32,000 bases of DNA from a bacterium (GTDB taxonomy: Bacteria; Auribacterota; Erginobacteria; Erginobacterales; DAOSXE01), in assembly GCA_035380285.1 (NCBI GenBank), contig DAOSXE010000002.1, positions 1,207-33,206 on the forward strand. Reading direction: 5' to 3'. The position numbers and the translations under genes are program-made. The first letter of the stretch is position 1. Each line of letters opens with the position of its first letter. Below are positions 3,643-22,200 of the stretch, one piece after another. The notes under the pieces were generated by a model. It was not told where the DNA came from. It made no database searches and worked only from the letters and a program-made list of their open reading frames with translations.

Positions 3643-3726
3643 TGCCGAAGGGGGGACTCGAACCCCCATGGAGTTACCCCCACATGGTCCTGAACCATGC
3701 GCGTCTGCCAATTCCGCCACTTCGGC
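3643..3726 (-). tRNA. tRNA-Leu, anticodon CAG, 84 nt, long variable arm, no encoded CCA
   Basis: Reverse complement reads GCCGAAGTGGCGGAATTGGCAGACGCGCATGGTTCAGGACCATGTGGGGGTAACTCCATGGGGGTTCGAGTCCCCCCTTCGGCA. Acceptor stem is GCCGAAG/CTTCGGC. Anticodon stem CATGG/CCATG carries loop TTCAGGA (anticodon CAG). The variable arm is long, and the T arm is GGGGG-TTCGAGT-CCCCC. Confidence 0.95.
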
Positions 3727-7398: not shown

Positions 7399-8582
7399 TC
7401 CGGACCCTGGCGGCGGCCCTGCTTTTTCTTCAGGCGGCCGGAACCGGCCCGGAGCCGGCCGGCGCCCCGGCCTGGAGGCAACAGGGGGGAGGGTCCGACC
7501 ACGGCGGAGGGGAGGGGGGGGTTCCCACCGACCCGGTTCTGGCGTGGCGCTATTCGGGGCGCTACGCTTTTTTCACCCCTCCCTCGGTTCTCGGCGACCG
7601 GCTGGTGGTGGGGGACGAGCATGGACGGCTGACCTGTTTTTCGGCCGAAGACGGTCACCGGATCTGGGACCGGAAGTCCTCCGGGTACTACGCCGCGGCC
7701 CCGGTGGCGGCGGAGGGCCGGATCTACGCCGCCTGCTCCCGCCGCGAACAGTGGACGGAAACCGTTAAAAGCGGGGGGATGTTTTCCGGCGGCGCCGACC
7801 AGATCGTGTCCATGGTCGAGGAGCGGGGGACCATCGCCTGTTACGCCCTGGAGAACGGGCGCAAGCTGTGGAGCCGGCGGTTTCCCAAGGTCATCCACGC
7901 CACACCCGCCCTGGAAGGAGACCGCCTGGTCGCGGGCAGCGGCGATTTCAAGATCTACTGCCTGGAAGCTCAGCGGGGGAAACACCTGTGGGAAGTCAAA
8001 ACGGAGGGACCGGTGGAAGCTTCCCCGGTCATCACCGCGGGGAGGGTCCTGGCCGGATCCAGCGACGCCAACCTTTACTGCCTCGACCTCGGCGACGGCT
8101 CCCTGCTCTGGCGTTTCAAGGCATCGGGCGCGATCCGGGTCGCCCCGGCGGCGGCGCGGGGCGGGGTTTTTTTCGGGACCGTGACGGGGACCATGTACTG
8201 CCTGACCGTTTCCGCGGGAACGAAGGTTTGGGAGAAGGACCTCAAAGCGCTCCTGGTTTCTCCGCCGATGATCGTTCACAACGATCTCGTCCTCGCCTGC
8301 AGCGACCACACCATCCGCTGTCTCCGGGGGGGGGACGGCGAAGAGAAATGGCGGCTCGAGACCCGGGGCATGGCCCGGAGCCTGGCCGCCGGCGCTGACG
8401 CGGGGTTGGCCGGCTGCGACGACGGAACCCTGGTCGCCTTCGGCCTGGAAGACGGCCGGGGGAGGTGGGAGCAGACGCTGGCCCGCAAGGAACCGCTCCT
8501 GGTCTCCATCGGGGGAGGGAAAATCTTTGCTTCTTCTCCCGACAAATCTATATATTGTCTGCGTCAGAACCGGGGCCGTTAG
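7395..8582 (+). CDS. PQQ-like (BamB-like) beta-propeller repeat protein, secreted, 395 aa
   Basis: ATG at 7395 overlaps the acyP stop (ATGA). The N-terminus is hydrophobic (MIRTLAAALLFLQAAG). About eight repeats of the l-Y-C-L-D-x-x-x-G-x-x-x-W type are present (LTCFSAEDGHRIW, IACYALENGRKLW, IYCLEAQRGKHLW, LYCLDLGDGSLLW, MYCLTVSAGTKVW, IRCLRGGDGEEKW, LVAFGLEDGRGRW). Confidence 0.85.
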   Translation: MIRTLAAALLFLQAAGTGPEPAGAPAWRQQGGGSDHGGGEGGVPTDPVLAWRYSGRYAFFTPPSVLGDRLVVGDEHGRLTCFSAEDGHRIWDRKSSGYYAAAPVAAEGRIYAACSRREQWTETVKSGGMFSGGADQIVSMVEERGTIACYALENGRKLWSRRFPKVIHATPALEGDRLVAGSGDFKIYCLEAQRGKHLWEVKTEGPVEASPVITAGRVLAGSSDANLYCLDLGDGSLLWRFKASGAIRVAPAAARGGVFFGTVTGTMYCLTVSAGTKVWEKDLKALLVSPPMIVHNDLVLACSDHTIRCLRGGDGEEKWRLETRGMARSLAAGADAGLAGCDDGTLVAFGLEDGRGRWEQTLARKEPLLVSIGGGKIFASSPDKSIYCLRQNRGR

Positions 8583-8612
8583 GGCGGCCCAAGCCTAAAC
8601 CCGGAGAGGGAA

Positions 8613-9344
8613 ATGAAAAGATTGGGTTCAGGGGCGTTGTTGCTGTTGTTGATGTCCGCGGTCGGAACGGTCCGGGCCGAACCGGCCGCCCCCGAAGACG
8701 GGTACCGGCTCCTGCGGGAAGCGACCGCCGCCGAAGCGGCGGGCCGCGCGGACCAGGCCGCGGCTCTGAACCGGCAGGCCCTGGACGTCTTCCGCGCCCT
8801 GGCCGGCGCCTCCGTCCCGGAAACGGACCCGGAACTGGATTCTTCCCGGCTGCGGATAGAAGAGGATCTCCCCTCGAAGCCCACCGACCTGGAACTGAAG
8901 CTGTTGCGCCAACAGGAGCTGATCCTCAACCAGCAGCAGCTGATCCTGCAGAAACTGGCTCAGGTCGCGGAGTCCAACGCCGCTTTCACCGAGGAGATCA
9001 AGGGGGTACGCGCGGACACCTCGGAGATACCCAATCTGTCCGACGAGATCGACGACATCCGTTCGAATTCGGAGACGATTCTCGACTTCGAGGGGCTCCT
9101 GGCCCGTATCGAGGACAACACCCAGGACATTCCCGAGATGCTCAACACCGTCGACGAGATCGACAACAACACCAGCGATATCGGCAATATCGACGACTCC
9201 CTCCAGGACATCCGGGACAACCGCGATCTGCTCGATCAGGTCATCAGCATCGTCGAGGACATCAAAAACGACACCGACCGCATCGGGGACGTGGAGTCGG
9301 CGGTGGAAGACGTCAAGGACGAGATCAGCTCCGGCGGCAATTAA
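8613..9344 (+). CDS. Secreted acidic coiled-coil protein, 243 aa, no family recognised
   Basis: RBS GGAGAGGG precedes the start. Signal peptide MKRLGSGALLLLLMSAVGTVRAEP. The C-terminal ~130 aa is strongly acidic, with I/L/V at heptad-like spacing (EIDDIRSNSETILDFEGLLARIEDNTQDIPEMLNTVDEIDNNTSDIGNIDDSLQDIRDNRDLLDQVISIVEDIKNDTDRIGDVESAVEDVKDEI). Confidence 0.7.
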   Translation: MKRLGSGALLLLLMSAVGTVRAEPAAPEDGYRLLREATAAEAAGRADQAAALNRQALDVFRALAGASVPETDPELDSSRLRIEEDLPSKPTDLELKLLRQQELILNQQQLILQKLAQVAESNAAFTEEIKGVRADTSEIPNLSDEIDDIRSNSETILDFEGLLARIEDNTQDIPEMLNTVDEIDNNTSDIGNIDDSLQDIRDNRDLLDQVISIVEDIKNDTDRIGDVESAVEDVKDEISSGGN

Positions 9345-11191
9345 GGAACCGGGCCGCCGGGGCCGGGCGTGGGCGGCGGCAGGGCCAGGAGCTGAGTTTT
9401 CAGTTTCGTCTCGCCGGGGTTGAGCCGCAGTCCGCGCCGCAAGGTGCTTCGGGCTTCGGCGAACAACCCCCGGCCGACATAGAGGCGGGCCAGGACCGCG
9501 AACCCGGTCGGATGCCGGGGCGCGCGGCGCAACGCTTCTTCGGCGGCCGCCAGCGCTTCGGGAAACCGACCCCGTTCCTGAAGCAACAGGGCCAGATTGC
9601 GCAGAGGCACCGCGTACTCGCGGTTGATCTCCCCCGCCTTCCGGTAGGCTTCGGCGGCTTCGGGAAACCGCGCTTCCCGCTCCAACGCAATGCCCAGGGC
9701 GTTATAGGCTTCGGGGACCCAGGGGTTGGCGGCGACGACCGAACGGATGATCGTCTCCGCCTCTTCGATCCGGCCCATGCGCAGGTAGGTTTCGGCCAGA
9801 TTGAGGGAGGCGACGTGGTAGAGAGGGTCCGCGGAAAGACTTTGCTCGAAATGGCGGACGGCTTTCTTCAACGCCCCCCGGTTGCGATAAAACACGCCCA
9901 GGTTGTTGTGGGCCTCGCAGTGCCGGGGGTTGATGGTCAGGGCTTCCCGCAGGGCGCCGATCGCGGCCCGGTCGTCCCCCCGGACATGGTACGCGATGGC
10001 CAGGTTGTTGTAGGCCAGGGAAGCCCGGGGCGAATAGATGCTGGCGCGAAGCCAGAGATTGAATTCGCTTTTCCAGGCCCAGAGATAGTCGACGCTCCCC
10101 AAAGTCAACGCGACCAGCACGATTCCCAGGACCGTCCCGGCCCAACGCCGGCGCCGGCACGTCCCCCCGGAAAGAAGCGGAGCCAGGAAAAGGCCCGCCA
10201 GAATGCATCCGAAGACCGAGGGAAAATACAGCCGCTGTTCGGCCACGGTCCGCCCGGCCTGGGCCACCTTGCTCAAGGCCGGCAGCAGGCTGATCGTCAA
10301 CCCGGCCCCCGCCCAGAAAATGCCGCGGCGGCGGCGGACCCGGCCCAGCGCCAGCAGGAAGGCGACCGCACCCAACAACGGCAGCAACCAGAGCCAGCCC
10401 CCCCAGTAAACCGGCAGCCTGAAGCTGTAGAGCGTCTTCAGGCGGACCGGAAAAATCAACAGCTGCAGATAGCGCGCCCAGAGCCGGACCATGTCCGGAG
10501 GGTAATCGACCAGATTTCCCGGCCGGGGCAGGCCCGCGGATTTAAGCATTACCGCCTTCCACGCCCCCGAGACCAGGGCGAGGCCCCAGAAGGGGAGACT
10601 GAGGCGCCAGGCGCGCTTCCAACCGGCGCGGAGAAGGACCGTGAACACGACCAGGGGGGGGAGGATCAGGGCCGTCTCCTTGGTCAGCAGCGCGGCGGCA
10701 TAGATCAGCGAGAGACCGGCGATCCGCAACGCCCCGGGCGGTCGGGCGGAAAGCAGGCCGGCCAGCACCAGAGTCATGAACAGCGAGGGCAGCAGCTCGG
10801 AAATGTTGCGGGGGTTGACCACGGCTTCCACGTGGGCGGGATGAACGGCGTAGAGGGCGGCGGCGACCAGGGCGGCGACGGCGCTCCCCCCCACGCGGAA
10901 GGCGAGCAGAAACACGGCAACGGTGGCCAGAGCGTTGACGAGGATGTTGGCGCACCGGTAGGGAGCCGGATCGGCCCCCCCCCACCACGCGGGGACGCTG
11001 AGCGCAAGCATCTGGAGCGGGCGGTAGTCGTTGCGGGAGATCGGCACGCGCCAGCGCCAGAAGTCCGGTTGAAAGTAGAGCAGGGGAGATTCCGCTCCGC
11101 GCAGCAGGCTGTTGTCCCGGACCACCCGCACGTCGTCCCAGAGCAGCGGGTAGCGGAGGGCCGGAAGATAGATCGACCCGCCGGCCACCAC
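9341..11191 (-). CDS. Multi-pass membrane protein with C-terminal TPR repeats (GT-C fold, TMTC/PMT-like putative glycosyltransferase), at least 616 aa
   Basis: The N-terminal ~400 aa is polytopic, with the WDD motif in the first loop (YPLLWDDVRVVRDNSLL) seen in TMTC/DUF1736-type proteins. The C-terminal ~200 aa carries repeated TPR units (AYNNLAIAYHVRGDDRAAIGALREALTINPRHCEAHNNLGVFY...). The N-terminus is uncertain; see the finding at 11189-11257. Its stop overlaps the convergent gene's stop within TTAA at 9341-9344. Confidence 0.8.
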   Translation of the reverse strand: MVAGGSIYLPALRYPLLWDDVRVVRDNSLLRGAESPLLYFQPDFWRWRVPISRNDYRPLQMLALSVPAWWGGADPAPYRCANILVNALATVAVFLLAFRVGGSAVAALVAAALYAVHPAHVEAVVNPRNISELLPSLFMTLVLAGLLSARPPGALRIAGLSLIYAAALLTKETALILPPLVVFTVLLRAGWKRAWRLSLPFWGLALVSGAWKAVMLKSAGLPRPGNLVDYPPDMVRLWARYLQLLIFPVRLKTLYSFRLPVYWGGWLWLLPLLGAVAFLLALGRVRRRRGIFWAGAGLTISLLPALSKVAQAGRTVAEQRLYFPSVFGCILAGLFLAPLLSGGTCRRRRWAGTVLGIVLVALTLGSVDYLWAWKSEFNLWLRASIYSPRASLAYNNLAIAYHVRGDDRAAIGALREALTINPRHCEAHNNLGVFYRNRGALKKAVRHFEQSLSADPLYHVASLNLAETYLRMGRIEEAETIIRSVVAANPWVPEAYNALGIALEREARFPEAAEAYRKAGEINREYAVPLRNLALLLQERGRFPEALAAAEEALRRAPRHPTGFAVLARLYVGRGLFAEARSTLRRGLRLNPGETKLKTQLLALPPPTPGPGGPVP

Positions 11192-11266
11192 GATCAGGGC
11201 GAGGGCGGCGGCGGCGGGGACGGAGAGTCGGGAGTGCTTAATCGTTTTCTCCGGTCAGATTTTATG

Positions 11267-11295
11267 TTGACCATGACGCTGGCCGGAAATACTAT
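11267..11295 (+). promoter_or_regulatory. Candidate sigma70-type promoter for the 11340-16760 gene string
   Basis: TTGACC (11267-11272), a 17-nt spacer, then TACTAT (11290-11295). A strong RBS GAAGGAGG (11326-11333) sits 6 nt before the ATG at 11340. Confidence 0.5.
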
Positions 11296-11339
11296 AGGGG
11301 CTGAATCTACCTGTCAATCATCCAAGAAGGAGGTTGCTC

Positions 11340-14147
11340 ATGACCAGAGCCAGGAGCATTTCGCTGGCCTCGGGTGTATTCACGGCGGGTGTTCTCGTCT
11401 TCCTCTTGTTCGCCTTGGGCGGTTTCACTTCCCCGCTCCCCTCGACCTGGGAGATGAAGTATACCAACCTCAAGGACGACCTCCGGGCCCTGGCCGTCAA
11501 CCCCCTCGATCCCCAGATACTCTACGTCGGCACGGATCAGGCCGTGCTCGGCAGCACCGACGGCGGCCAGACCTGGAACCAGCTCTACAGCTTCCGCGAC
11601 GACAAGATCGATATCTCCGACGTGCTTTCGGATGAAGCCATCCAGGTTTTGACCGACATCGGAGCGGACGCCGCCCAGGCGTCCGCCCCCGCCGGCCAGG
11701 CGGAGGAAAGCGCTCCGAAGGAAGCCGAAAGAGCCCCGCGCGGCCGCGAAAGCGCTCCTTCCGGAACGGGAGGGTCGGGCACTAGCTCGACGGCCGAACT
11801 GGCCGGCCAGGTGGAGACGGCGCTGCAGAAAATGACGGAAACCCAGGACGCCCTCGCCCAGGCCGAGGACGCCTACATGGAATGGACCCCGGACGAGCTC
11901 ACCATCTCCGAGGTGGACGGGATTCCCGAAGACGACAGCGGCTTCGTGGAACAGCCCATGTACGACGAACTGGCCAACTGGCTCTCCGAACGTTCCCTGA
12001 GCGTCCCCGACAACGGGGCCGAGCGCAAAGACACCCTGGTCGATTACCTCAAGACCCACGAGGCCGAAGGCGAAACCCTGTCCAAGGCGGTGGACTCGGC
12101 CAAGTCGCAATACACCAACGCCGAGGGGGAATACAACAACCTCAAGGCGCAGCTGGAACAGGCCGAGGCCGCCCAGGGGCAGGCCGAGGACCAGGAGGAG
12201 ATGGCGGCGACGGAAGAATTCCAGTCCGAAGAGGCCGGCGCCTCCGCCCCGGAACCGGGAGCCCAGTCCACCCCCGCGATCGAAGGCGGGTATCTCACCG
12301 GGGTAACCGACCTGGCCGTCAACCCCGCCAATCCGGACCATGTCTTCGCCACCACCTTCGACGGGGTCTACCGGTCGCCGGACGGGGGACAGACCTGGGA
12401 ATCGATCTACACCGGCGCCAACCCCCGCCAGGGATGCAGTCTCTGCATCACCATCGACCCCTCCAACCCCGACATCATCCTGCTGGGGACCCTGGTCGGG
12501 GTCGGAATATCCAAAGACGGAGGCGTCAGCTGGACCCGGGCGCTGGGCAGCCTCAGCAACGACGTCGTCACCGCCGTCGCCGTGCATCCCTTCGACTCCA
12601 GCGTCATCCTCGCCGGGACCCAGGGGGACGGCATCTTCAAGAGCACGGACGGGGGCGACAGCTGGGAAAAGGTCTTCAACAACCCCTCGTCCGGAGCCCA
12701 GAACATCGGGGCCGTCGCCTTCGCCCCCGCCAACCCCAACATCGTCTATGCCGGAACCCAGAACGGCATCTACGTCAGCCACGACGCCGGTTCCACCTGG
12801 GACACCGCCTCGGGCATGGGCCTGGGAAGCTACGGCGCCCGCGACCTGGCCATCGACCCCACCGATTCCAACACTGTCCTCATGGCCAGCTGGGACGGTG
12901 TCTTCGGCACCATGAATGGCGGCAGCCAATGGCGGCGCCTGACCTACGGGCTCAAGTACCGGGGGGCGGACCGCGTCCTCTTCGACCCGCTCGCCCCGGA
13001 AACGATCTGGATGCTGACCGACGACCATGTCTTCCGGGGAGAAAGCCCCGCCACGGTCGACGTCGAAGGCGACGGCAAAGCCTACCTTACCGGCAACTGC
13101 GAGTTCAGTTTCGGGGGCACCGAGCGCCACACCCTGACCATCCTCAACGTCGATCCGCAGGCCAAGACGGTCAAGATCGAACTGCGCTCCGAACCCCAGG
13201 ACCTGACCCTCGAAGTGGGCGTGCCCACGGAGGTCGATCTGAACGGGGACGGGACCAAGGACGCTCTCATCACCCTGGAGAAGATCGACCAGGGCGAACC
13301 CAAGATCTCCATCTACAAGGTGCTGCGTATATCCGCCCGGGAAGAGTCCATCCAGCTGAAATCGGCCGAAGAGGTCAGGGGGCTCGAGGACCTGGAACCG
13401 TACTTCGCCGCCGAGCCCAGCTGCGTCGAGGTCCAGGATGCCGCCTCCCGCTGGGGAGAAGTTCACCCCGAGATGATCGAGGACTGGCGGGAAGGCGCCC
13501 GCTTCCGCGCGTTTCTCCCCGAGGTCCAGGTCCAGTACACCTACCGGGTGGATAACGATACGGCCACCGACAGCTATGATTCCTATTCCCGGGAATACGA
13601 CTTCTACACCGCCTACGGCGGCAACTCCGAAGTCAGCAGCAGCCGGGGAGACGAGTACACGGAGGGTTTCTACCCCTCCACCAGCCTGGGATGGCCCGAT
13701 ACCTACGAATGGTTCGACTCCTACTCCACCTACGACGAGTCCTCGGCGTATCAGTCCTACCAGGATTACGAGGGCACCTCCTCCCGCGACGAGCACCGCA
13801 CCCGCGACGGAGCCCGGGACCGCAACTCCAAGGCCTGGAAGTTCCAGCTCGACTGGTACCTGGGCGATTTCCTCTTCGAGAGGCAGCAACTCTACATCAG
13901 CCGGGAAGCCCGCGACCTGGTGGAACTGCGCCAGGACATCCTGGAGCAGGTGACCATGTACTACTTCGACCGCAAGGCCGCCCGGATCGACATGATCATG
14001 AACCCGCCGGCCGACTCCTACTCCAAGCTGGACATGCTCCTGCGCCTGCAGCAGCTCGACGCCAGCCTCGACGCCCTCACCGGGGGATTCTTCACGGCCA
14101 CGATCAAGGAGAGACGTGCTCAGTACCCGGAACTCCCGGTCTATTGA
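11340..14147 (+). CDS. Membrane-anchored BNR/Asp-box beta-propeller protein with an acidic coiled-coil insertion and an unassigned C-terminal module, 935 aa
   Basis: The ATG at 11340 has better RBS spacing than the TTG at 11334. N-terminal TM segment: GVFTAGVLVFLLFALGGF. Six S-x-D-x-G-x-[TS]-W type Asp-boxes are present (STDGGQTW, SPDGGQTW, SKDGGVSW, STDGGDSW, SHDAGSTW, TMNGGSQW), each preceded by an LAVNPxxP..h..G-like strand. The C-terminal ~250 aa is paralogous to the next gene. Confidence 0.85.
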   Translation: MTRARSISLASGVFTAGVLVFLLFALGGFTSPLPSTWEMKYTNLKDDLRALAVNPLDPQILYVGTDQAVLGSTDGGQTWNQLYSFRDDKIDISDVLSDEAIQVLTDIGADAAQASAPAGQAEESAPKEAERAPRGRESAPSGTGGSGTSSTAELAGQVETALQKMTETQDALAQAEDAYMEWTPDELTISEVDGIPEDDSGFVEQPMYDELANWLSERSLSVPDNGAERKDTLVDYLKTHEAEGETLSKAVDSAKSQYTNAEGEYNNLKAQLEQAEAAQGQAEDQEEMAATEEFQSEEAGASAPEPGAQSTPAIEGGYLTGVTDLAVNPANPDHVFATTFDGVYRSPDGGQTWESIYTGANPRQGCSLCITIDPSNPDIILLGTLVGVGISKDGGVSWTRALGSLSNDVVTAVAVHPFDSSVILAGTQGDGIFKSTDGGDSWEKVFNNPSSGAQNIGAVAFAPANPNIVYAGTQNGIYVSHDAGSTWDTASGMGLGSYGARDLAIDPTDSNTVLMASWDGVFGTMNGGSQWRRLTYGLKYRGADRVLFDPLAPETIWMLTDDHVFRGESPATVDVEGDGKAYLTGNCEFSFGGTERHTLTILNVDPQAKTVKIELRSEPQDLTLEVGVPTEVDLNGDGTKDALITLEKIDQGEPKISIYKVLRISAREESIQLKSAEEVRGLEDLEPYFAAEPSCVEVQDAASRWGEVHPEMIEDWREGARFRAFLPEVQVQYTYRVDNDTATDSYDSYSREYDFYTAYGGNSEVSSSRGDEYTEGFYPSTSLGWPDTYEWFDSYSTYDESSAYQSYQDYEGTSSRDEHRTRDGARDRNSKAWKFQLDWYLGDFLFERQQLYISREARDLVELRQDILEQVTMYYFDRKAARIDMIMNPPADSYSKLDMLLRLQQLDASLDALTGGFFTATIKERRAQYPELPVY
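13390..14144 (+). other. Copy 1 of the shared unassigned module (C-terminus of the BNR protein)
   Basis: Contains GEVHPEMIEDWREGARFRAFLPEVQVQYTYRV, then a Y/S/D-rich segment, then AWKFQLDWYLGDFLFERQQLYISREARDLVELRQDILEQVTMYYFDRKAARIDMIMNPPADSYSKLDMLLRLQQLDASLDALTGGFF. Confidence 0.7.
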
Positions 14148-14197
14148 GAAACAATTAACCCAATGCGGCATTTTCAAATAGCGAGAAGGAGGGTGCC

Positions 14198-15043
14198 ATG
14201 ACCCCAAGAAGCGCACTGCCGATCACGGCGGGAGTCGTGCTCTTGACGATCCTCTTGAGCCTCAGCATCAGCCAGGAGATCGTGACCCAGCCGCCTCCGG
14301 TGGAGACTCTGGACGACCTCAACGCCCTGTTCGCCGACGAGCCCACCTACAACGAGATCCAGGAAGCGGCCATGAGGTTCGCCGAGGTCCATCCGGACAA
14401 GATCGAAAGCTGGAGACAGGGGGCAAAATTCCGCGCCTTTCTTCCCCGGGTGAGCTACCGGTACAACGTCTACGACGATTGGACCGACGAAATCTCGACC
14501 GGTAGCGAGGACAGCATCTCCTTCGAGTACTCCTACGACTACGAGGTCATGAGCTCTTCCGAGCAGGGGACCAACGACGGCTACGGCCAGGCCGGCAGCA
14601 GCGGCTGGCCGGTCCCGGAATGGTCCATGACCCAGGAGTACACCAACCGCAGCGGCCAGGCGGCGTCGACCCGGGACGCCTACGGAGAGTCGGGAGGGAC
14701 CCGCGACTACATCGGCACCTACGAGGAGGACGGCAACACCAAGGAGTGGGGGGTCATGCTGGAATGGGACCTGCGCGACTTCCTCTACAGCGAGGAGCAG
14801 ACCCGGATCAGCAAGGAGGCGCGGGAACTGGTCGAGCTTCGCCAGGACGTGATGGAGGAAGTCAACACCTACTTCTTCGACCGGCGCCGGTCCCAGATCG
14901 ATATGCTCTTTTCCCCTCCGACCGACACCGCCAGCCGGATCGACATGCAGCTGCAGATCGCCCGTCTGACCGCCAACATCGATGCCCTGACCGGTGGCTT
15001 TCTGAGCAAGCGCCTGGCGGAGACCAAAACCGCCGTGCAGTAA
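14198..15043 (+). CDS. Hypothetical exported or membrane-anchored protein, 281 aa, made up almost entirely of the module shared with the upstream gene
   Basis: RBS GAAGGAGGG. N-terminal hydrophobic segment: ITAGVVLLTILLSLSI. Contains AEVHPDKIESWRQGAKFRAFLPRVSYRYNVY, then a Y/S/D/G-rich segment, then EWGVMLEWDLRDFLYSEEQTRISKEARELVELRQDVMEEVNTYFFDRRRSQIDMLFSPPTDTASRIDMQLQIARLTANIDALTGGFL. Confidence 0.75.
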   Translation: MTPRSALPITAGVVLLTILLSLSISQEIVTQPPPVETLDDLNALFADEPTYNEIQEAAMRFAEVHPDKIESWRQGAKFRAFLPRVSYRYNVYDDWTDEISTGSEDSISFEYSYDYEVMSSSEQGTNDGYGQAGSSGWPVPEWSMTQEYTNRSGQAASTRDAYGESGGTRDYIGTYEEDGNTKEWGVMLEWDLRDFLYSEEQTRISKEARELVELRQDVMEEVNTYFFDRRRSQIDMLFSPPTDTASRIDMQLQIARLTANIDALTGGFLSKRLAETKTAVQ

Positions 15044-15076: not shown

Positions 15077-15586
15077 ATGGCCGCCGCGGGATGGGGACCG
15101 GAACGGCGGGTTCGGCGGAAACGGGAGGGGAGGCGAACGGGGGTGAACGGCTTCACCTCGAGTTTCTTTCTGGTCAATTTTCTCCTGCAGCTGCTGGGGT
15201 TCAGCTCGGGCCAGTACCTGGAACGCCGGGTGGACATGGACGTGGCGGTGTTCTGGCGCAATCAGGCCCTGGCCGCCCCCCGATGCTCCTATACCCGGAT
15301 AGACTGCTATAACAAGGCGCTGGCGAGGGACTCCGGGTACCTGGCCGCCCGGTGCGAGCTGGCCGACGTTTACTACGAGCTGGGCATAACCTACGGGCAC
15401 CGCGACCTTTTTCGGGCCGCGGCCGATTGCCTGGAGGCGGCCGCCGCCCTGGAGCCGGACGACCCGGAAATCCACCGCCGGTTGGGCCGCGTGTACTTTC
15501 TCCTGCGCGATTTCGACGGCAGCCGCCGCGAGTTGGAACGAACCCGGGCCCTTTCTCCGCAAGCGAACCCGGTCCCGGGACCATGA
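15077..15586 (+). CDS. Small TPR-like protein with one N-terminal hydrophobic segment, 169 aa (alternative GTG start at 15143)
   Basis: Hydrophobic FTSSFFLVNFLLQLLGF is followed by TPR-like helices (YNKALARDSGYLAARCELADVYYELG...AADCLEAAAALEPDDPEIHRRLGRVYFLLRDFDGSRRELERTRALSP). The GTG at 15143 is preceded by GGGAGGGGAGG. The stop overlaps the next start (ATGA). Confidence 0.55.
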   Translation: MAAAGWGPERRVRRKREGRRTGVNGFTSSFFLVNFLLQLLGFSSGQYLERRVDMDVAVFWRNQALAAPRCSYTRIDCYNKALARDSGYLAARCELADVYYELGITYGHRDLFRAAADCLEAAAALEPDDPEIHRRLGRVYFLLRDFDGSRRELERTRALSPQANPVPGP

Positions 15587-16035
15587 AGGGGAGGGGACCG
15601 GGACGAACGTTCCTCGTCCTGGTCATCGCGTTTACGGCCGCAGCGGCGTGGGCCAAGGTCAACATCAACACCGCCACCCAGGCCGAACTGGAAAGCCTTC
15701 CGGGGATCGGGAAGGTCAAGGCCGAACGCATCATCCAGTACCGGGAAAAGCACAGCGGTTTCCGGCGGCTGGAAGAACTGATGGACGTTTACGGCATCGG
15801 CCCCAAAACGTTCGAAGCACTCGAACCCCTCTGTTGCCTTTATGACGAAATCGGAACCGGGGCCCGGGCAGAGGCCGGGTCCCCGGGTTCCGGACAGGGC
15901 CCGCGCTCGACCGAACCCCTGCCGGGGAGCATGGAGGTTAAATGCTGGAAGTGCGGCAAGGTCTTCGAAGTGCCCAGAGCCGCCCGGGAAGGAACCTGCC
16001 CGTACTGTTCGGCCAAATTCAAGGTTTCCCGGTGA
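15583..16035 (+). CDS. comEA: ComEA-like helix-hairpin-helix DNA-binding protein with a C-terminal zinc ribbon, 150 aa
   Basis: Signal/anchor segment: MKGRGPGRTFLVLVIAFTAAAAWA. ComEA-type HhH pair: KVNINTATQAELESLPGIGKVKAERIIQYREKHSGFRRLEELMDVYGIGPKTFEAL. A G/P/S-rich linker follows, then CWKCGKVFEVPRAAREGTCPYC (CxxC-x16-CxxC). Confidence 0.85.
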   Translation: MKGRGPGRTFLVLVIAFTAAAAWAKVNINTATQAELESLPGIGKVKAERIIQYREKHSGFRRLEELMDVYGIGPKTFEALEPLCCLYDEIGTGARAEAGSPGSGQGPRSTEPLPGSMEVKCWKCGKVFEVPRAAREGTCPYCSAKFKVSR

Positions 16036-16760
16036 AACGAACCGTCGGCACTCTGGAGTACCGTACGAAAACCGGCGCCGGAGACCTGACTATTTTCGAA
16101 GTAAGGGAGGGGGAATCCGACCTGCGGGTGGCGGCGGAGCGCGATTATTCCCGGGAAGCGGCGGCGGCTCTGTCCCGGATCCGGAGAGGGCTCAAGGAGT
16201 TCACGGCCCGGGAGCCCCGGTTCGGATCCACCTTTCTCCCCTGGTTCCCGGCCGGAGCCGTCCCCGCCCCCTTGCGGCGCATGGCCGAGGCCGCGGCCCG
16301 GTTCAACCTGGGCCCCATGGCGGCGGTGGCGGGCGCCGTGGCCGAAGCGGTGGGACAAGCCCTGCCGGGAACGGAAGCGATCGTCGAAAACGGCGGCGAC
16401 CTCTTCATCCGCTCCGCCCGCGGGCGTTTCGTGGAGATTCTTCCCGGCCCGGGCCACCCCCTGGCGGGGAAACTGACGTTGGCGGTGCCCCCGGCCCCCG
16501 GAGGAATCGGCATAGCCACTTCCTCGGGACGCTGGGGCCGCTCGATCAGCTTCGGGAACGCCGATTCGGTCACGGTGGTGGCCGACGACCCCATCTGGGC
16601 CGACGCCGGCGCCACGTCGCTGGCCAACCGCGTCGCCCGGGAAGATCGGGCCCGCAACCCCCGAACGGGCGACTACCTGCTGGAAGCGGGCGGGGTGCGC
16701 GGCTTCCTGATCGTCTGCGGCGGAACCGTTCACCTCCGGGGGCGGATTTCCCTGGCCTAG
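16032..16760 (+). CDS. UPF0280 / COG2122 family protein (ApbE-like superfamily), 242 aa
   Basis: The GTG at 16032 overlaps the comEA-like stop (GTGA). LGPMAAVAGAVAEAVGQAL, ENGGDLFI, GIATSSGRWGRSISFGNADSVTVVADDPIWADAGATSLANRV match my memory of the UPF0280 pattern. The assignment is from recall, not a search. Confidence 0.7.
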   Translation: MKRTVGTLEYRTKTGAGDLTIFEVREGESDLRVAAERDYSREAAAALSRIRRGLKEFTAREPRFGSTFLPWFPAGAVPAPLRRMAEAAARFNLGPMAAVAGAVAEAVGQALPGTEAIVENGGDLFIRSARGRFVEILPGPGHPLAGKLTLAVPPAPGGIGIATSSGRWGRSISFGNADSVTVVADDPIWADAGATSLANRVAREDRARNPRTGDYLLEAGGVRGFLIVCGGTVHLRGRISLA

Positions 16761-16773
16761 GGCCTAAATTTTG

Positions 16774-16806
16774 TTGCTCGGGAGCCCCTGGGAATGGTAC
16801 TATAAT
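16774..16806 (+). promoter_or_regulatory. Candidate promoter for the two large secreted-protein genes
   Basis: TTGCTC (16774-16779), an 18-nt spacer, then TACTAT (16798-16803), which overlaps a perfect TATAAT (16801-16806). A G-rich RBS (16835-16840) precedes the ATG at 16846. This is the only sizeable intergenic gap (85 nt) between 11.3 and 23.7 kb. Confidence 0.45.
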
Positions 16807-16845
16807 TTGACGACTAAAAGCTCCATACCGCCACAGGGGGGTTAG

Positions 16846-19206
16846 ATGACAACCTTGGTCAGGAAGCCTGTATTCATGCTGGTTTGCGCCTTCGCGATCT
16901 TTGCCGTATCCGCCCCGTTGCCGCGAGCGGAGGCGGCGGGGCCCACCCCGGAGGACCAGGCGCTTTTGGAAGAAATGCGCCAGGAGATCGCGGCGCAGGG
17001 CTACGGATTCACCGTGGACTGGGATCCTCACCTCAACTCCGACGCCTGGTTCACCCCGGACCGCTCGGCCAAGGACAGACTGCCCCGGGCCCTTCCTCCC
17101 CGTACCGCCGCTCCCTTGCCGACCGCCTTCAGCTGGGCGGACTACGACGCCCTGACCCCGGTCCGGGACCAGGGGTACGTCTGCGCCGGCGGCTGGGCCT
17201 TCGCCATGGGGGGGGTGGTCGAATCTCTCTTCAAGATGAGCTACGGCCTCGATCTGGATATCTCCGAACAGTGGATCATCGAGTGCAACACCCTGGGGTA
17301 CGACTGCATCCCCAGCCACGACGCCTACTTCTGCTACCAGTTTCTCTGCGACCAGCCGGCCCTCGACGGCGAAGCCGGGATCGTCCCCGAATCCGAGTTT
17401 TTCTACGCCGACACCGACGTCCTTCCCTGTTCCACCAACTACCCTTACCTCAAGGTCGGCCGGCTGGACAGTTTTCTCCTGGTGGGAGACGACGGCGACC
17501 TCAGCGACCCCGAGCCCCGGGTCGAGGATATCAAGCGCGCCATCTACGAAACCGGCCCGGTCTCGGTCATGCTGGGCGCCGATATTTATTTCAGCGGCTA
17601 TTCGGGGGGGATTTTCGACTACGACATCCGTGAACCGGAAGCGGTCCAGGCCGTGGTCCTGTACGGCTGGGACGATTCCCAGGGCGACCACGGGGTCTGG
17701 TTCCTCCGCAACAGCTTCGGAACCGGCTGGGGCGAGCCCATGAGCTACAGCACCGGAATCTCCCCCGGTCCCGACCGGGGCTACATGCGCATCGCCTACG
17801 GCGCCAGCCGGGTGGGGATCGACGCTCAATACGCCGAATTCCAGCCCTCGACCCAGCGGCGCTCCTACAGTGTGAGGCGGTTCGAGAACGATTTTACGGG
17901 AGGGGGCACCGCCCAAAACTGGAAAGCGGACGAGGCGCTCTGGCAGTACGCGCTGCCCTTCACCTTCCCCTTCTACCGGCGCCCCTACAACAATATCTGG
18001 GTGTCTTCCAACGGCTACATATCCTTCTCCGCCGGGACCTGTCTCTGGAACGCCGATATCGACACCCTGCGCTCCACCCGCATGATCGCTCCCTTCTGGA
18101 TCGACCTTTCCACGGCCGACACGGGCCGGGACATCTACATCGACGAGCAGACCGACAACGTCACCATCCGCTGGAACGCCATCCAGCCCGGGCTTCCCAC
18201 CATCGCCATCCAGGCCGAACTCATTCTCAACCGCGACGGCAGTTTCCAGATCAACTACGGCGACGGCAACATCTTCGCCGGTTTCTACCCGGTCGTCGGC
18301 TTCTCCGACGGCAACGGTATCGACTTTCAGCTTACCGACTGCAACGGGCGCTGGAACCTCCAGTCCGATTTCCCCGAAACCAACAATTACACCGGGGCTT
18401 TCTGCCCCGGGGTGCTCAAATCCCGCCGGGTGCTCTCCCGCACCTTTACCCCGATCAGCTCCGCCGCCGGAATCGTCGACGGCGACTACAGCGGCAACGG
18501 GAAATCCGATATCGCGGTGCTGCGGTCCTACCGGGGCAAGTGGAGCATCCGGGGATTTTCGAACGTATACTACGGCGCGGCCGGCGACCTCCCGGTCTCC
18601 GGCGACTACGACGGCGACGGCACCGCCGACATCGCCGTTTTCCGGCCCTCCACCGGCCTCTGGGCCGTCCGCGGCGTCACCGCCGCCTACTACGGAATTC
18701 TGGGCGACAAGGCCGTTCCCGCCGATTACAACGGGGACGGCAAAACCGACATCGCCGTTTTCCGGCCCGATACCGCCGCCTGGAGCGTCCGGAACCTCAG
18801 CCACTTCTACCACGGCAAACGCATGGACGTCCCTCTCCCGGGGGATTACAACGGCGACGGCAGAGCCGAAGCCGCCGTCTACCGGCCCTTGACCGGCGGC
18901 TGGATGATCCGGGGGATGGGTTCCCGGTGGCTGGGCACCTACGGGGACATTCCCGTCCCCGGAGATTACTCCGGGGACGGCAGCACCTACCCGGCGATCT
19001 TCCGGCCTTCCTCCGGGCTCTGGGTGATCCAGGGCCTTTCCCGGCTCTACTTCGGGGCTCCCGGAGATTCGCCGGTGCCGCTCGACTATTCGGGGGTGGA
19101 CGCCCTGCGCTTGGGCATATTCCGTCCCTCCAGCGGCCTCTGGGTCGTCCGGCAAGTCACCCGCGCCTACTTCGGAGCCACCGGGGATACCCCCGTCACC
19201 AAATAA
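16846..19206 (+). CDS. Secreted multidomain protein, 786 aa: papain-like (C1) domain with substituted catalytic Cys/His, NIDO-like middle domain, six C-terminal FG-GAP/VCBS-like repeats
   Basis: Signal peptide: MTTLVRKPVFMLVCAFAIFAVSAPLPRAEA. C1-like motifs: VRDQGYVCAGGWAFAMGG, QAVVLYGWDD, VWFLRNSFGTGWGEPMSY. Middle domain: LPFTFPFYRRPYNNIWVSSNGYISF...IAPFWIDLS. The C-terminal repeats are listed separately. Confidence 0.85.
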   Translation: MTTLVRKPVFMLVCAFAIFAVSAPLPRAEAAGPTPEDQALLEEMRQEIAAQGYGFTVDWDPHLNSDAWFTPDRSAKDRLPRALPPRTAAPLPTAFSWADYDALTPVRDQGYVCAGGWAFAMGGVVESLFKMSYGLDLDISEQWIIECNTLGYDCIPSHDAYFCYQFLCDQPALDGEAGIVPESEFFYADTDVLPCSTNYPYLKVGRLDSFLLVGDDGDLSDPEPRVEDIKRAIYETGPVSVMLGADIYFSGYSGGIFDYDIREPEAVQAVVLYGWDDSQGDHGVWFLRNSFGTGWGEPMSYSTGISPGPDRGYMRIAYGASRVGIDAQYAEFQPSTQRRSYSVRRFENDFTGGGTAQNWKADEALWQYALPFTFPFYRRPYNNIWVSSNGYISFSAGTCLWNADIDTLRSTRMIAPFWIDLSTADTGRDIYIDEQTDNVTIRWNAIQPGLPTIAIQAELILNRDGSFQINYGDGNIFAGFYPVVGFSDGNGIDFQLTDCNGRWNLQSDFPETNNYTGAFCPGVLKSRRVLSRTFTPISSAAGIVDGDYSGNGKSDIAVLRSYRGKWSIRGFSNVYYGAAGDLPVSGDYDGDGTADIAVFRPSTGLWAVRGVTAAYYGILGDKAVPADYNGDGKTDIAVFRPDTAAWSVRNLSHFYHGKRMDVPLPGDYNGDGRAEAAVYRPLTGGWMIRGMGSRWLGTYGDIPVPGDYSGDGSTYPAIFRPSSGLWVIQGLSRLYFGAPGDSPVPLDYSGVDALRLGIFRPSSGLWVVRQVTRAYFGATGDTPVTK
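18478..19203 (+). repeat. Six tandem ~40-aa FG-GAP/VCBS-like repeats (coding), C-terminus of the 786-aa protein
   Basis: Unit consensus is DY[DN]GDGxxDxAVFRPSxGLWxVRGxxxxYFGxxGDxPVPx. Examples: DYDGDGTADIAVFRPSTGLWAVRGVTAAYYGILGDKAVPA and DYNGDGKTDIAVFRPDTAAWSVRNLSHFYHGKRMDVPLPG. Confidence 0.85.
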
Positions 19207-19250: not shown

Positions 19251-22200
19251 ATGAGAGTTTTTGTACGCACCGTTTTCAGCGCAGCCGCCGCCCTGGCGTT
19301 GTTTCTGCCCCCGGCGTTTTCCCAGGCCCAGTGGGGGTCGGGAGTGATCAAGGGGCGGGTGACCGACGCCGCCACCGGAGCGGGCATCGCCGGAGTGAGG
19401 ATGCTGGCCATGTCTTCCGGGGGAGGCCGGGCCGGAGTTACCGACGCCGGCGGCTACTACACCCTGAGCAACCTCATCCCCGGACTCTACCGGCTTCAAG
19501 CCTACACCGACCTGGAGTTCCCCGGCATCGGCTACGCCACCCAATACTACTCGCAGAAGTACTACTTCGAGACCGCGGATCCGATCAAGGCCGAAAACGG
19601 GGTGGAGACGACCGGAGTGGATATGCAGCTGGACCGGGGGGCGGTCATCACCGGGCAACTGACCGACGCCCACACCGGGGAAGTGGTCGTCGGGCTCAAG
19701 ATCGCCGCCTACACCCTGGGCGAGAAAGCCGCTTTCTGGAACAACTCCGACGAGAACGGCATCTTCGAACTCCAGCCCCTGCGTGACGGCTACTACCGGC
19801 TTCTGGCCTACACCCAGCCCTACAACTACACCAACCCCGAGGGGAAATGTTTCCAGCAGGAGTGGTACCTGCACAGCGAATTCGGGTCCGCGACCGTTTT
19901 TCAGGTCGCCAAGGGAGAAGTGCGGACCCTGAGCGGGCCCTGGGAACTGGATTACTGCAAGACCCCCACGCCCGAGCCCGAGCCCACTCCAACTCCGGAA
20001 CCGCCCCCGCTGCAGATCTACCAGGTCTGGCCCGGCTACCCCTCCGACCCGGGCGACGGCATCGGCCAGGCCACCGTGGTCATCGCCCCCAACGACAAGG
20101 TCTGGCTCTTCGACTGCGGCGACCGCTACTGGGCCGGGGAGCTGGATAAGGACTGTCCCCGGGAAGTTCTCTACCTCCTCGATTCCCTCGGCTACAGTTC
20201 GATCGACTACGCCGTGGTCAGCCACTACGACGCCGACCACTGTTACGGATTCATCACCATCGCCAACGGCACCGGCGACCCCGGCGACCCGCCCCTGGTC
20301 CGGGACGGGGTGGGACAGATCCCGGTGGCGTACGACCGAGGCGGCACCACCGACGTCGACGGGGATCCCCTCTCGGTCTTCTACACCGCTGGGATCTCCC
20401 AGCGCAAGACCCCGGTCCTGGGGACCGACATTCCCCTGGGCAGCGGGGCGGTCCTGCGCTGGCTGGCTTTCGGGAACCCCAACTACGGGGCTCCGGGAGA
20501 GACCAACGAAGTCTACGTCCTCGACCACGCCCCCCTGACCACGGCCGACGGCAACATCGACGAAAACTCCAAGAGCATCGTCGTTTCCCTGCTCTACGGG
20601 GGCTTCGACTACTACATCGGCGGCGATTCGACCTGCAGCTCCCTCAGCTCCTTCGTGGGGGTGGAGGAGGCCGTAAGCGAAGTGTACCGGACCACGTTCA
20701 ACCGCTCCTTCGACATCATCCTCCTCGACCACCACGGGTCCAGTTACCACACCCCCACCTACTTCCTCATGCGCACCCTCCCCGAGGCGGCCATGGTGGC
20801 CTGCTGGGACAACAATTACGGCCACCCCACCTGCGCCACGCTGGACCGGGTGGTGCAGTACACCGAAACCGGCCCCGGGCGCCAGTCGGTCTTCCAGGTC
20901 GACGAGGGGAGCAGCTCCTACCCCTGCAACGCCTACGCCCTCTCCGCCAACGCCCCCATCCGGATCTTCACCGACGGCTACTACTACTCGATCGAACCCC
21001 GTTCCGACCTGGCCCCGGCCTACTACACCACCGCCTCCCCGCTCCCGATCTCCCGGTATACCTCCCTGGACCCGATCACCGACACCGCCTGGGACAACCA
21101 CCCGGTCGACGACATCGGCATCCCCACGCCCACTCCGGCACCCACCCCCCCGGTGGAGCGTTCGGTCGTCATCAACGAAGTCTGCTGGGCCGGGACCCAG
21201 GCCAGTTATTATGACGAGTGGATCGAGTTCTACAACCGTACCGACACCGCCGTCGACATCAGCTCCTGGTCGATCATCAGCCCCCGCTACTCCTTCAACT
21301 TCTCCGAAGCCGAGGGTTCTCTGGTGATTCCGGCCCACGGCTACTGGGTCTTCGCCGACAAGCAGATCTTCTCTTCGGGAGCGACGGTCAATATCACCGG
21401 GTCCATCGCCCTCTACAACGACAACCAGGGTCAGTTCCGGCTTTACAACCAGCCCGACGGCGCCGGGGTCCTGGTCGACGCCGTCAACCCCGACGGAGCC
21501 ACCGTCTGGTGCGGAGGGTCCAGCGGGGGAGAGGCCGACCGCCGCAGCATGGAGCGCAGGAACTGGGGCCTGGACGGCGCCGTCTGCGCCAACTGGTGCA
21601 CCTACGGGGGCGTACCCGTCGTCGAGGACAGCAGCGGGTACCCGGTCCTGGGCAGCCCGGGCTACGAAAACAGCTGTTTCTTCACCACCCCCTCGCCGTC
21701 GCCCTCTCCCATCGCCTCCCCGACCCCGACGACGACTCCGATCGGCTTCAAAACCCCCAGCCCCTCGACCACCCCCACTCCGCTGCCGCCGGTGGTCATC
21801 GTCAACGAGATCGCCTGGTCCGGCACCGCCGCCGGCGGGAGCTACGAGTGGATCGAGCTCTACAACGCCACCGGGAGCACGGTCGACCTCACCAACTGGT
21901 TCCTCGAAATCGGCGGCGTCAGCATCGACCTGACCGGGTCCATCGACCCCATGGGATACTACCTGCTGGAACGCTACCAGGCGGCCGTCAGCGACATCCC
22001 CGGCGACATGGTCTACGACTTCGGTTCCATCAGCAACCTGGGGGAGACGGTCGCCCTGCTCAACACCGGAATAACCGTGGACTTCATCGACTGCCTGAGC
22101 GGCTGGTTCGCCGGTTCGGCCAGCCCCGGGTATTACTCGATGGAAAGAATCTACCCCGGCTACTCCGGTTCCAACCCCTCAAACTGGCAGAACAACAACG

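Follow-up and report, generated by a model that had tools for sequence, protein, structure and literature searches.

A widespread, unannotated C-terminal module of exported bacterial proteins resembles one repeat of TolC-type channels in its design

What is the domain that two adjacent genes of an Auribacterota bacterium share, and what could it do in the cell envelope? The two genes, here called A and B, lie in a 32,000-nucleotide stretch (the window) of contig DAOSXE010000002.1, positions 1,207 to 33,206 of the forward strand (assembly GCA_035380285.1; GTDB lineage Erginobacteria, Erginobacterales, DAOSXE01). A encodes an exported propeller protein which ends in the shared module, and B encodes a small exported protein which consists of a signal peptide and the module (Table 1). 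Our analysis showed that the shared segment is no artefact: the module represents an ancient family of domains, widely distributed but so far unannotated, at the C-terminus of Sec-exported proteins. Its resemblance in design to the repeat of TolC-type outer-membrane factors (OMFs; Pfam family OEP, PF02321) is clear, and profile comparisons make remote homology to that repeat likely but unproven.

BLASTP aligned residues 679-926 of A with residues 35-277 of B (183 bits, E 1e-56; 108/260 identical, or 42%, and 59% positives), the identity being concentrated outside the compositionally biased blocks. The last ~250 aa of A and nearly the whole of B had already been called paralogous from the letters of the window (hereafter the sequence-only reading), and our alignment recovered this at nearly the same coordinates. 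The duplication is old, as the aligned codons are merely 56.7% identical at the nucleotide level and 53% at third positions. The same reading had proposed an old duplication with a maintained module, in agreement with this divergence and with the keeping of the pair throughout the clade of the window. It had also called the module unassigned, and no family could be given to it here either: searches of Pfam-A, NCBIfam and the PDB sequences with B alone or with profiles of 31 or 45 members found nothing at threshold. The lone PDB match to the module, 3ol3 (E 0.21), was a short helix match and was dismissed. Fifty homologues of B all lacked a protein name, and public names, where present, were 'hypothetical protein'. 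Full-text literature searches found no description of the module family or of a single-repeat OMF, and BNR, ComEA and TolC are not mentioned in the Auribacterota genome paper.

An exhaustive HMMER profile search of 1.84 billion cluster representatives (50%-identity clusters) returned 1,932, 1,339 and 312 members of the module family at E ≤1e-3, ≤1e-10 and ≤1e-30, respectively. The typical member has ~510-560 aa with the module at its C-terminus, and comes mostly from Omnitrophota. A BNR/Sortilin-Vps10-type propeller precedes the module in 73 of 102 sampled members by Pfam; HHH_3 and LTD domains are other passengers fused to it. When one genome per GTDB species was scanned with the pattern [IL]D[AG][LM]TGG[YFW][LF]S, 311 matches were confirmed. 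The best 80 of the 311 were overwhelmingly from Candidatus Omnitrophota; the remainder of these 80 include metagenome-assembled genomes (MAGs) of the PVC group and Auribacterota (Ca. Euphemobacter, Ca. Erginobacter), MAGs labelled Planctomycetia, and single MAGs labelled CSSED10-310, Bradymonadales and Eisenbacteria. The PVC-group/Auribacterota set holds the closest relatives of the module of the window, with 45-73% identity to B. An N-terminal hydrophobic export segment was recognised, by a heuristic which does not predict cleavage sites, in 99 of 108 full-length members as well as in A and B, and the one genome paper on Auribacterota depicts these bacteria as diderms (PMC9324843).

Column statistics from an alignment of 198 family members revealed two strongly patterned blocks around a single β-hairpin, the family core being ~165-190 aa long. 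The N-terminal block, E-P-[ST]-x-x-E-[IV]-Q-x-x-A-x-R-Y-A-E-V-H-P-x-K-I-x-x-W-R-x-x-A-x-x-x-A-x-L-P, is strongly conserved. It is followed by strand S1 ([VLF]-x-[FLV]-x-Y-D, hydrophobic at alternate positions), the hairpin tip, strand S2 (W-x-V-x-L-x-W-D-L, with an invariant Trp) and a C-terminal block, …Q-T-S-I-D-x-R-S-R-L-M-V-x-L-R-D-D-I-L-x-E-V-T-x-x-Y-F-E-R-R-R-L-Q-I-E-L-L-x-x-P-P-x-D…L-R-x-x-E-L-T-A-x-I-D-A-L-T-G-G-Y-[LF]-S. Hydrophobic and polar positions alternate strictly in S1 and S2, which have aromatic ends; in S2 the mean Kyte-Doolittle value alternates between about +3.5 and about -2. The tip is ~20-35 aa long in Omnitrophota and ~90-100 aa in the clade of the window, its composition is variable too, and it is strongly polar or charged in many orthologues. 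Such hypervariability in length and composition is as expected for a surface loop. Among the blocks shared by A and B that had been quoted before, EVHPx.IE.WR.GA.FRAFLP, the first and third strands, and ISxEARxLVELRQD...DALTGGF are family-wide, whereas the middle strand and the Y/S/D/G-rich spacer fall in the lineage-specific, low-confidence tip insert. The size of ~250 aa and the extra strand, which had been taken as features of the module, are due to the same insert.

AlphaFold2 modelled B poorly from 31 sequences (predicted local distance difference test score, pLDDT, 55.5). With a 45-sequence alignment including distant members, residues 30-281 of B reached pLDDT 71.9 (model m83d25268ab8a). 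Helices were placed, in model numbering, at 22-33, 37-50, 170-209, 215-236 and 239-251 with pLDDT 90-98, and strands at 55-77 and 138-160 with pLDDT ~76-81 at their bases and 33-55 in the middle. The predicted order is thus helix–kink–helix, an amphipathic β-hairpin with very long strands (18-23 residues), and a confident helical hairpin of ~40 residues with a PP turn (H-H-E…E-H-H-H), in keeping with the strands and long helices that the sequence-only reading had described. The tip inserts of B (14474-14743) and A (13551-13832) are polar and of low complexity, yet contain a near-invariant W142, S157 and W184 (B numbering). AlphaFold2 drew the insert with low confidence as a second long hairpin of two extra long strands; if this hairpin is real, there would be four strands per module, like a whole TolC protomer.

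These elements follow one another as in a single structural repeat of OMFs. Each OMF protomer contains a duplicated motif, in which two transmembrane strands are combined with one long helix and with a pair of shorter helices that stack into a pseudo-helix as long as the long one (PMC8277102, section 6.2). In the AlphaFold2 model the helices are ~60% as long as those of OMFs, and the helix preceding S1 after the HP kink (14 residues) and the return helix (22) together roughly equal the long helix (40), so the two short helices of the module may be stacked in the same way. The motif order also matches: an [N/H]P kink, LLPxL before S1, and xLTG ending the last helix. Most of the 24 OMFs that we extracted have a short helix up to N-P, a helix up to L-L-P-x-L before S1, and x-L-T-G or A-L-G-G-G at the end of the last helix.

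Profile comparisons pointed in the same direction. OEP was the sole recurrent Pfam match besides the propeller and HhH (helix-hairpin-helix) families, with sub-threshold matches in 4/31, 7/45 and (at E≤10) 18/102 members and a best E of 5e-4. A hidden Markov model (HMM) of 26 OEP half repeats matched 155 of 198 modules at E≤10, and its top-scoring matches share one register, with OEP positions ~32-79 lying on helix end–LPxL–S1–tip–S2. By hhalign, the 198-sequence module alignment matched 26 half repeats from 13 TolC-type proteins with a probability of 23.5% (P 8.6e-4). The probability was 75.5% (P 2.4e-5, score 36.1, 88 columns) against 48 half repeats, after CusC, MdtP, SilC, OprJ and NodT-type OMFs were added, and 33.6% (P 4.4e-4, unchanged register) with a 282-sequence module alignment; since this larger alignment lowered the probability, the figure of 75.5% is not taken as settled. 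The observed scores of 27.9-36.1, in constant register across alignments, compare with 11-13 for reversed profiles and at most 26.9 for 220 block-shuffled OEP profiles (in 100 shuffles, a maximum of 26.6 against the observed 36.1). In a positive control, the N-half and C-half of OEP matched each other at 99.6%. A permissive alignment was collinear over the whole repeat, with gaps where the helices of the module are shorter.

In the preferred reading the module has the architecture of one TolC-type structural repeat, of which it is probably a remote homologue, and would serve as an oligomerising anchor or pore of the outer membrane which holds its passengers beneath that membrane. We hold this reading tentatively, at somewhat less than an even chance. 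Modules would associate side by side, six of them by analogy with TolC: each contributes two strands, so a TolC-like barrel of 12 strands needs six modules. The hairpins would close a small outer-membrane β-barrel, and the helices would form a short (~60 Å) periplasmic α-barrel. In the genome of the window three copies of A and three of B are possible, in which case A and B would stand in for the alternating N- and C-repeats of the TolC trimer. The assembly would hang its N-terminal passenger, a BNR propeller in A and most members or a ComEA-type HhH domain in some, beneath the outer membrane. Because both ends of the hairpin unit are on the helical side, these passengers would be periplasmic, below the pore. 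This would correct an earlier placement of the propeller as N-terminally membrane-anchored, as a TolC-like topology would put it in the periplasm. We infer membrane insertion, stoichiometry and the co-assembly of A and B from these arguments.

Several observations weigh against this reading. No member reaches the gathering score of OEP (22 bits), B scoring 9.1-9.2 bits (E 1.3-1.4), and hmmsearch with the module HMM against E. coli TolC alone was insignificant, though its two local alignments lay at the LPxL sites, one in each half of TolC. The hhalign probability depends on the alignment (23-76%), and the signal is confined to the helix end, the hairpin and the first half of H3. A Foldseek search of both AlphaFold2 models against the PDB found nothing at E<1e-3 and ranked the TolC homologue ST50 41st; the highest-ranked weak matches were to phi29-type lower collars, the FliF β-collar and toxin pores, soluble proteins which build rings or tubes and have long hairpins. 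S1 has merely three clearly lipid-facing positions, and the hairpin of the lineage of the window carries a highly polar, low-confidence insert of ~90 aa. In the neighbourhoods examined there were no adaptor or pump genes (HlyD/MFP, RND, ABC, MFS) and no evidence related to BAM near the module genes, while control OMFs from plasmids adjoin RND, HlyD or MacB genes. In the Omnitrophota majority form the protein is encoded by a single gene for which neither a partner nor a conserved neighbourhood was found. As most members are single genes, hetero-assembly is not required for function, and the Omnitrophota module is evidently able to act as a homo-oligomer or alone.

The Foldseek matches raise an alternative, that the module is a soluble periplasmic or extracellular domain which oligomerises into rings or tubes, with a β-collar or tube outside the membrane as in FliF or phi29-type proteins, and that its resemblance to OEP is convergent. 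The best of these matches, all insignificant, are of that kind (8egr_I, E 6e-3; 6qz9, prob 0.94; FliF), the predicted strands are longer than a membrane needs, many orthologues have a polar or charged hairpin tip, and the OEP similarity is sub-threshold. However, at the base of the hairpin a conserved face of aromatic and aliphatic residues alternates with polar positions, the variable tip suits a surface loop, and the OEP similarity keeps a constant register and exceeds all nulls. Because the Foldseek matches have TM-scores of 0.1-0.2 and root-mean-square deviations of 30-60 Å and are driven by low-confidence hairpins, they are uninformative and were not used as evidence of fold. We regard a soluble ring former as unlikely, though worth keeping in view.

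Another explanation is an envelope anchor which is not a channel: a helical bundle with a hairpin that binds outer-membrane lipid or lipopolysaccharide, peptidoglycan or an S-layer non-covalently, or that dimerises, and merely tethers the propeller, with neither a barrel nor homology to OMFs. The placement of the module at the C-terminus after varied passengers would suit such an anchor, as would weak PG_binding_5 matches in 3 of 102 members and the neighbourhoods without transport partners. But it leaves unexplained the strict alternation in the strands, the OMF-like motif order and the helix-length arithmetic, as well as the bare-module protein B beside A in 12/12 genomes, and we consider it rather doubtful. 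That A and B are highly diverged classical OMFs, exit ducts for a type I secretion system or efflux pump whose genes lie elsewhere, and hence known biology, would fit the weak OEP similarity and the TolC-like repeat topology, and is nevertheless very improbable. There is one repeat per protein rather than two, and the helices of ~40 instead of ~67 residues are probably too short for an inner-membrane pump adaptor (inferred from PMC8277102). A bulky propeller or HhH domain would sit at the periplasmic entrance, no pump or adaptor gene is found in the neighbourhoods examined, and the Pfam gathering score is not attained.

These comparisons indicate that the module is not an OMF member as defined, having one repeat per chain, short helices, no pump neighbours and scores under the Pfam threshold; the family HMM detects a single module in each protein, both in the window and across more than 80 loci, and not the tandem pair of OMFs. 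The sequence-only reading had likened the module to TolC half repeats, and of this the topology, the motif order and a weak but reproducible OEP profile similarity hold, while no match reached the OEP threshold. No high-probability OEP match, which in that reading would have made the module known biology, was obtained within the range of hhalign probabilities given above. A TolC half-repeat is the best available description of the module, with moderate statistical support. It would belong to an outer-membrane system, and the pairing of module genes is lineage-specific, not universal.

In the clade of the window the genes occur in the order: divergent PMT_2/TPR membrane protein, BNR-module protein (~920-980 aa), small module protein (~275-300 aa), TPR protein (~155-170 aa), usually a ComEA-like protein, and UPF0280. 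This arrangement was seen in four loci found through homologues of B. The large and small genes are adjacent in 12/12 species-representative genomes of the clade and in the window, the TPR gene comes directly after the small gene wherever the pair occurs in the clade, and the UPF0280 gene is conserved there too. The pairing of a large and a small gene noted before thus holds in every one of these genomes but is not general. The orthologue of the 616-aa membrane protein stands head-to-head with gene A in every clade locus, which suggests co-regulation. On conserved columns identity is 0.72 for A–A, 0.79 for B–B, 0.56 for A–B, 0.41 for A–Omnitrophota and 0.44 for B–Omnitrophota. This indicates that the module was duplicated inside the lineage of the window before its diversification, and that both copies have been under purifying selection. 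The large and small paralogues, always side by side there, most likely co-assemble into one hetero-oligomer. An artefact of low-complexity composition, an assembly duplication or chance is refuted as the source of the A–B similarity despite the biased Y/S/D/G-rich spacer, given composition-adjusted BLASTP statistics with identity mainly in non-biased blocks, the recurrence of both genes on independent assemblies and in 12 other species, and a nucleotide identity of 57% which excludes assembly duplication.

A second, independent pair was found outside this phylum, in five genomes (one CSSED10-310 MAG, one that is labelled Bradymonadales, and three MAGs without classification) and in the metagenomic locus L023; the loci are L055, L056, L061, L064, L067 and L023. 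The first gene encodes 615-665 aa with a divergent C-terminal module (E 1e-9 to 1e-22) and, in most, BNR by Pfam, the propeller of L023 being detected by phmmer only. The next gene encodes a module protein of 260-330 aa whose N-terminal part is a ComEA-type HHH_3 domain (5e-22 to 8e-20 for the three that were scanned, L056, L064 and L067; that of L055 had no HhH match). Four more HhH-module fusions were present among the cluster representatives (P0086, P0094, P0101, P0187). The fusion provides independent evidence that the ComEA-like gene of the operon works with module proteins, and the neighbouring TPR and ComEA-like proteins are probable partners of them. L023 has an additional stand-alone HhH protein after the pair. 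LTD domains recur: P0088 consists of LTD, PEP-CTERM, BNR and the module, and in the second lineage a protein with five Big_5 domains and an LTD (L064:6595-10110) lies directly 3' of the HhH-module gene.

Fusion to ComEA-type domains and proximity to a ComEA-like gene, the presence of a small TPR protein, and LTD domains which recur in module proteins or next to them point loosely to the handling of extracellular polymers, possibly DNA. The TolC-repeat reading can be carried further. The module would then be a single-repeat, half-length relative of TolC, either a survivor from before the duplication or a derived miniature, forming a hexameric (here 3+3 A/B) short outer-membrane pore. Together with the ComEA-type HhH and TPR proteins it would constitute a secretin-independent portal of the outer membrane, through which Omnitrophota, Auribacterota and related bacteria would capture or import DNA or other polymers from outside the cell. 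This extended proposal is a long shot.

The remaining features of the locus are collected in Table 1. The string of A, B, TPR, ComEA-like and UPF0280 genes has intergenic gaps of 50 and 33 nt followed by two 4-nt overlaps. ORFs, a consensus scan and Pfam, NCBIfam and PDB matches bore out the operon layout, the candidate promoter and putative ribosome-binding site, and the TPR, ComEA-like and COG2122-like neighbours described before. The same A/B pair occurs on several independent public assemblies, on contigs of up to 206 kb. Gene A starts with ATG, and an alternative TTG is possible two codons upstream. The insert of A (residues ~95-310) is Ala/Glu/Gln-rich and missing from the Omnitrophota-type homologues of ~520 aa; in the orthologue P0051 it has weak coiled-coil Pfam matches. 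The propeller matched Sortilin-Vps10 (1e-19) and PSII_BNR (3e-8), both over the cut-off, and BNR in Pfam, and GH74 xyloglucanase propellers (E 1.8e-12) and Ycf48 (E 2.6e-4) in the PDB, the likeness being confined to the blades, which have the repeated Asp-box S-x-D-x-G-x-T-W. Identification as a GH74 or F510_1955 glycosyl hydrolase was rejected: NCBIfam F510_1955 scored 137 bits, below the cut-off of 175, and BNR blades alone align, so no enzymatic claim is made.

Table 1. Coordinates of the features of the A/B locus, in positions of the window
Feature	Position	Strand	Basis
Divergent 616-aa polytopic membrane protein with C-terminal TPRs	9341..11191	-	Pfam TPR families; PMT_2 weak in orthologue L006
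Sigma-70-like promoter candidate TTGACC-17-TACTAT, divergent intergenic region	11267..11295	+	Consensus match alone
Shine-Dalgarno-like AAGAAGGAGG, 7 nt 5' of the gene A ATG	11323..11332	+	Sequence read
Gene A, 935-aa exported BNR/Asp-box propeller protein with C-terminal module	11340..14147	+	ORF (open reading frame); Pfam; gene called on identical public contigs
N-terminal hydrophobic segment of A, putative signal peptide or signal anchor, MTRARSISLASGVFTAGVLVFLLFALGGF	11340..11450	+	Sequence
Acidic coiled-coil-like insert of ~215 aa, between first BNR blade and remaining propeller	11622..12269	+	Translation
Main part of BNR β-propeller, A residues ~311-560	12270..13019	+	Pfam stretches 381-491; PDB
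Module copy A, residues 679-926	13374..14117	+	BLASTP to B; family HMM E 5.6e-61, one domain
Strand S1 of module A, EVQVQYTYRV, behind invariant LP	13521..13550	+	Alignments; alternating hydrophobic/polar columns
Strand S2 of module A, AWKFQLDWYL	13833..13862	+	Alignments; W-x-V-x-L-x-W-D-L columns, W invariant
Helical hairpin of module A, …ISREARDLVELRQD…NPPAD…LDALTGGFF…	13878..14129	+	Alignment to B, equivalent region pLDDT 90-98
Gene B, 281-aa exported protein, signal peptide plus module	14198..15043	+	ORF; no Pfam/NCBIfam family
Signal peptide of B, MTPRSALPITAGVVLLTILLSLSISQ	14198..14275	+	Sequence; hydrophobic N-termini aligned in 30 orthologues
Module copy B, residues 35-277	14300..15028	+	BLASTP; family HMM E 1.6e-72; AlphaFold models
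Strand S1 of module B, VSYRYNVYD, after LP82-83	14447..14473	+	AlphaFold2 strand from residue 84, pLDDT ~76-81; column statistics
Lineage-specific polar low-complexity insert at hairpin tip of B, ~90 aa	14474..14743	+	AlphaFold2 pLDDT 33-55
Strand S2 of module B, EWGVMLEWDL	14744..14773	+	AlphaFold2 pLDDT ~80; invariant W190/L192
Helical hairpin of module B: helix 199-238, SPP turn, helix 244-265, GG kink, helix 268-280	14792..15037	+	AlphaFold2 pLDDT 90-98; also in first model
Small TPR protein, 169 aa, N-terminal hydrophobic segment	15077..15586	+	Pfam TPR_2/TPR_11
ComEA-like exported HhH protein, 150 aa, C-terminal zinc-ribbon-like CxxC…CxxC	15583..16035	+	Pfam HHH_3; NCBIfam comEA; PDB
UPF0280/COG2122 (ApbE-like) protein, last gene of the tight string	16032..16760	+	NCBIfam; Pfam; PDB

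The ComEA-like protein was matched by Pfam HHH_3 (6e-23), by NCBIfam TIGR00426 (comEA) over the cut-off and by PDB ComEA 8DSS (E 1.4e-15). Its CxxC…CxxC tail has weak matches to Pfam Zn_ribbon_4 and the NCBIfam MJ0042 domain and is unusual behind a signal peptide; orthologues in related loci have two HHH_3 domains in place of this tail. The UPF0280/COG2122 protein matched NCBIfam PRK04334 (2.4e-54), PDB 2O34 (E 1e-29) and, on the public contig, Pfam AbpE_bact. Downstream of the operon are large surface-type proteins, one with Peptidase_C1 and FG-GAP (16846-19206) and a 1,469-aa CarboxypepD_reg/LTD protein (~19251-23660). The sole tRNA of the window is a tRNA-Leu (CAG) at 3643-3726 (-). Very long ORFs at 8465-11635 (+), 11307-14216 (-) and 16570-19155 (-), antisense to or overlapping real genes, are typical of DNA with 63-68% G+C; their translations are Arg/Gly/Pro-rich, and they were rejected as genes.

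The domain occurs in ~2,000 clusters at 50% identity and in hundreds of species, in phyla without cultured members, and has neither a Pfam or NCBIfam model nor a relative of known structure. If the domain were defined, one of the most frequent exported propeller proteins in Omnitrophota would gain an annotation. In the view given in PMC8277102, TolC-type channels arose when a half-unit was duplicated. If the module is a one-repeat, OMF-like unit, it would be the first natural example of that half-unit, and the adjacent A/B paralogues would show a homo-oligomer becoming a pseudo-symmetric hetero-oligomer, an intermediate for the evolution of the TolC fold. The recurrent ComEA-type link, which is a fusion in one lineage and a matter of gene neighbourhood in another, suggests an approachable outer-membrane function, namely the handling of DNA or other polymers.

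Compared with TolC, OprM and CusC (OEP, PF02321), the module is likewise exported and runs from a short helix through the [N/H]P kink, a helix, LLPxL, a strand, a surface loop, a strand, a long helix, a turn and a helix to xLTG(G). Unlike them, it has no recognisable equatorial domain, its helices have ~40 rather than ~67 residues, and module proteins carry a large N-terminal passenger instead of a free periplasmic entrance. Like the DNA-uptake system of ComEA, the PilQ secretin and a TPR pilotin (PilF/PilW), the locus combines genes for an exported HhH protein and for a small TPR protein with those of a presumed oligomer of the outer membrane. It differs in that secretin, pilus and ComEC genes are absent from the locus in the window and the presumed outer-membrane component is unrelated to secretins; the match of the TPR protein to PilW (E 0.006) is far below the cut-off, so that its TPR assignment is generic. 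The lower collars of phi29, P68 and Andhra, the FliF β-collar and the stems of anthrax PA, CDTb and lysenin share with the module a helical or globular body and a long β-hairpin which is sensible only in an oligomer, whereas the matches to these β-tube and collar formers are insignificant (TM-score ≤0.2), their sequences are unrelated to that of the module, and their helical parts are different. Finally, the Asp-box propeller of A, which is similar in sequence to GH74-type propellers, would be held at a membrane like the envelope-tethered periplasmic propellers Ycf48, BamB and TolB; in contrast to A, the known ones have no C-terminal helix/hairpin module and rely on a lipid anchor or on partner proteins for their tethering.

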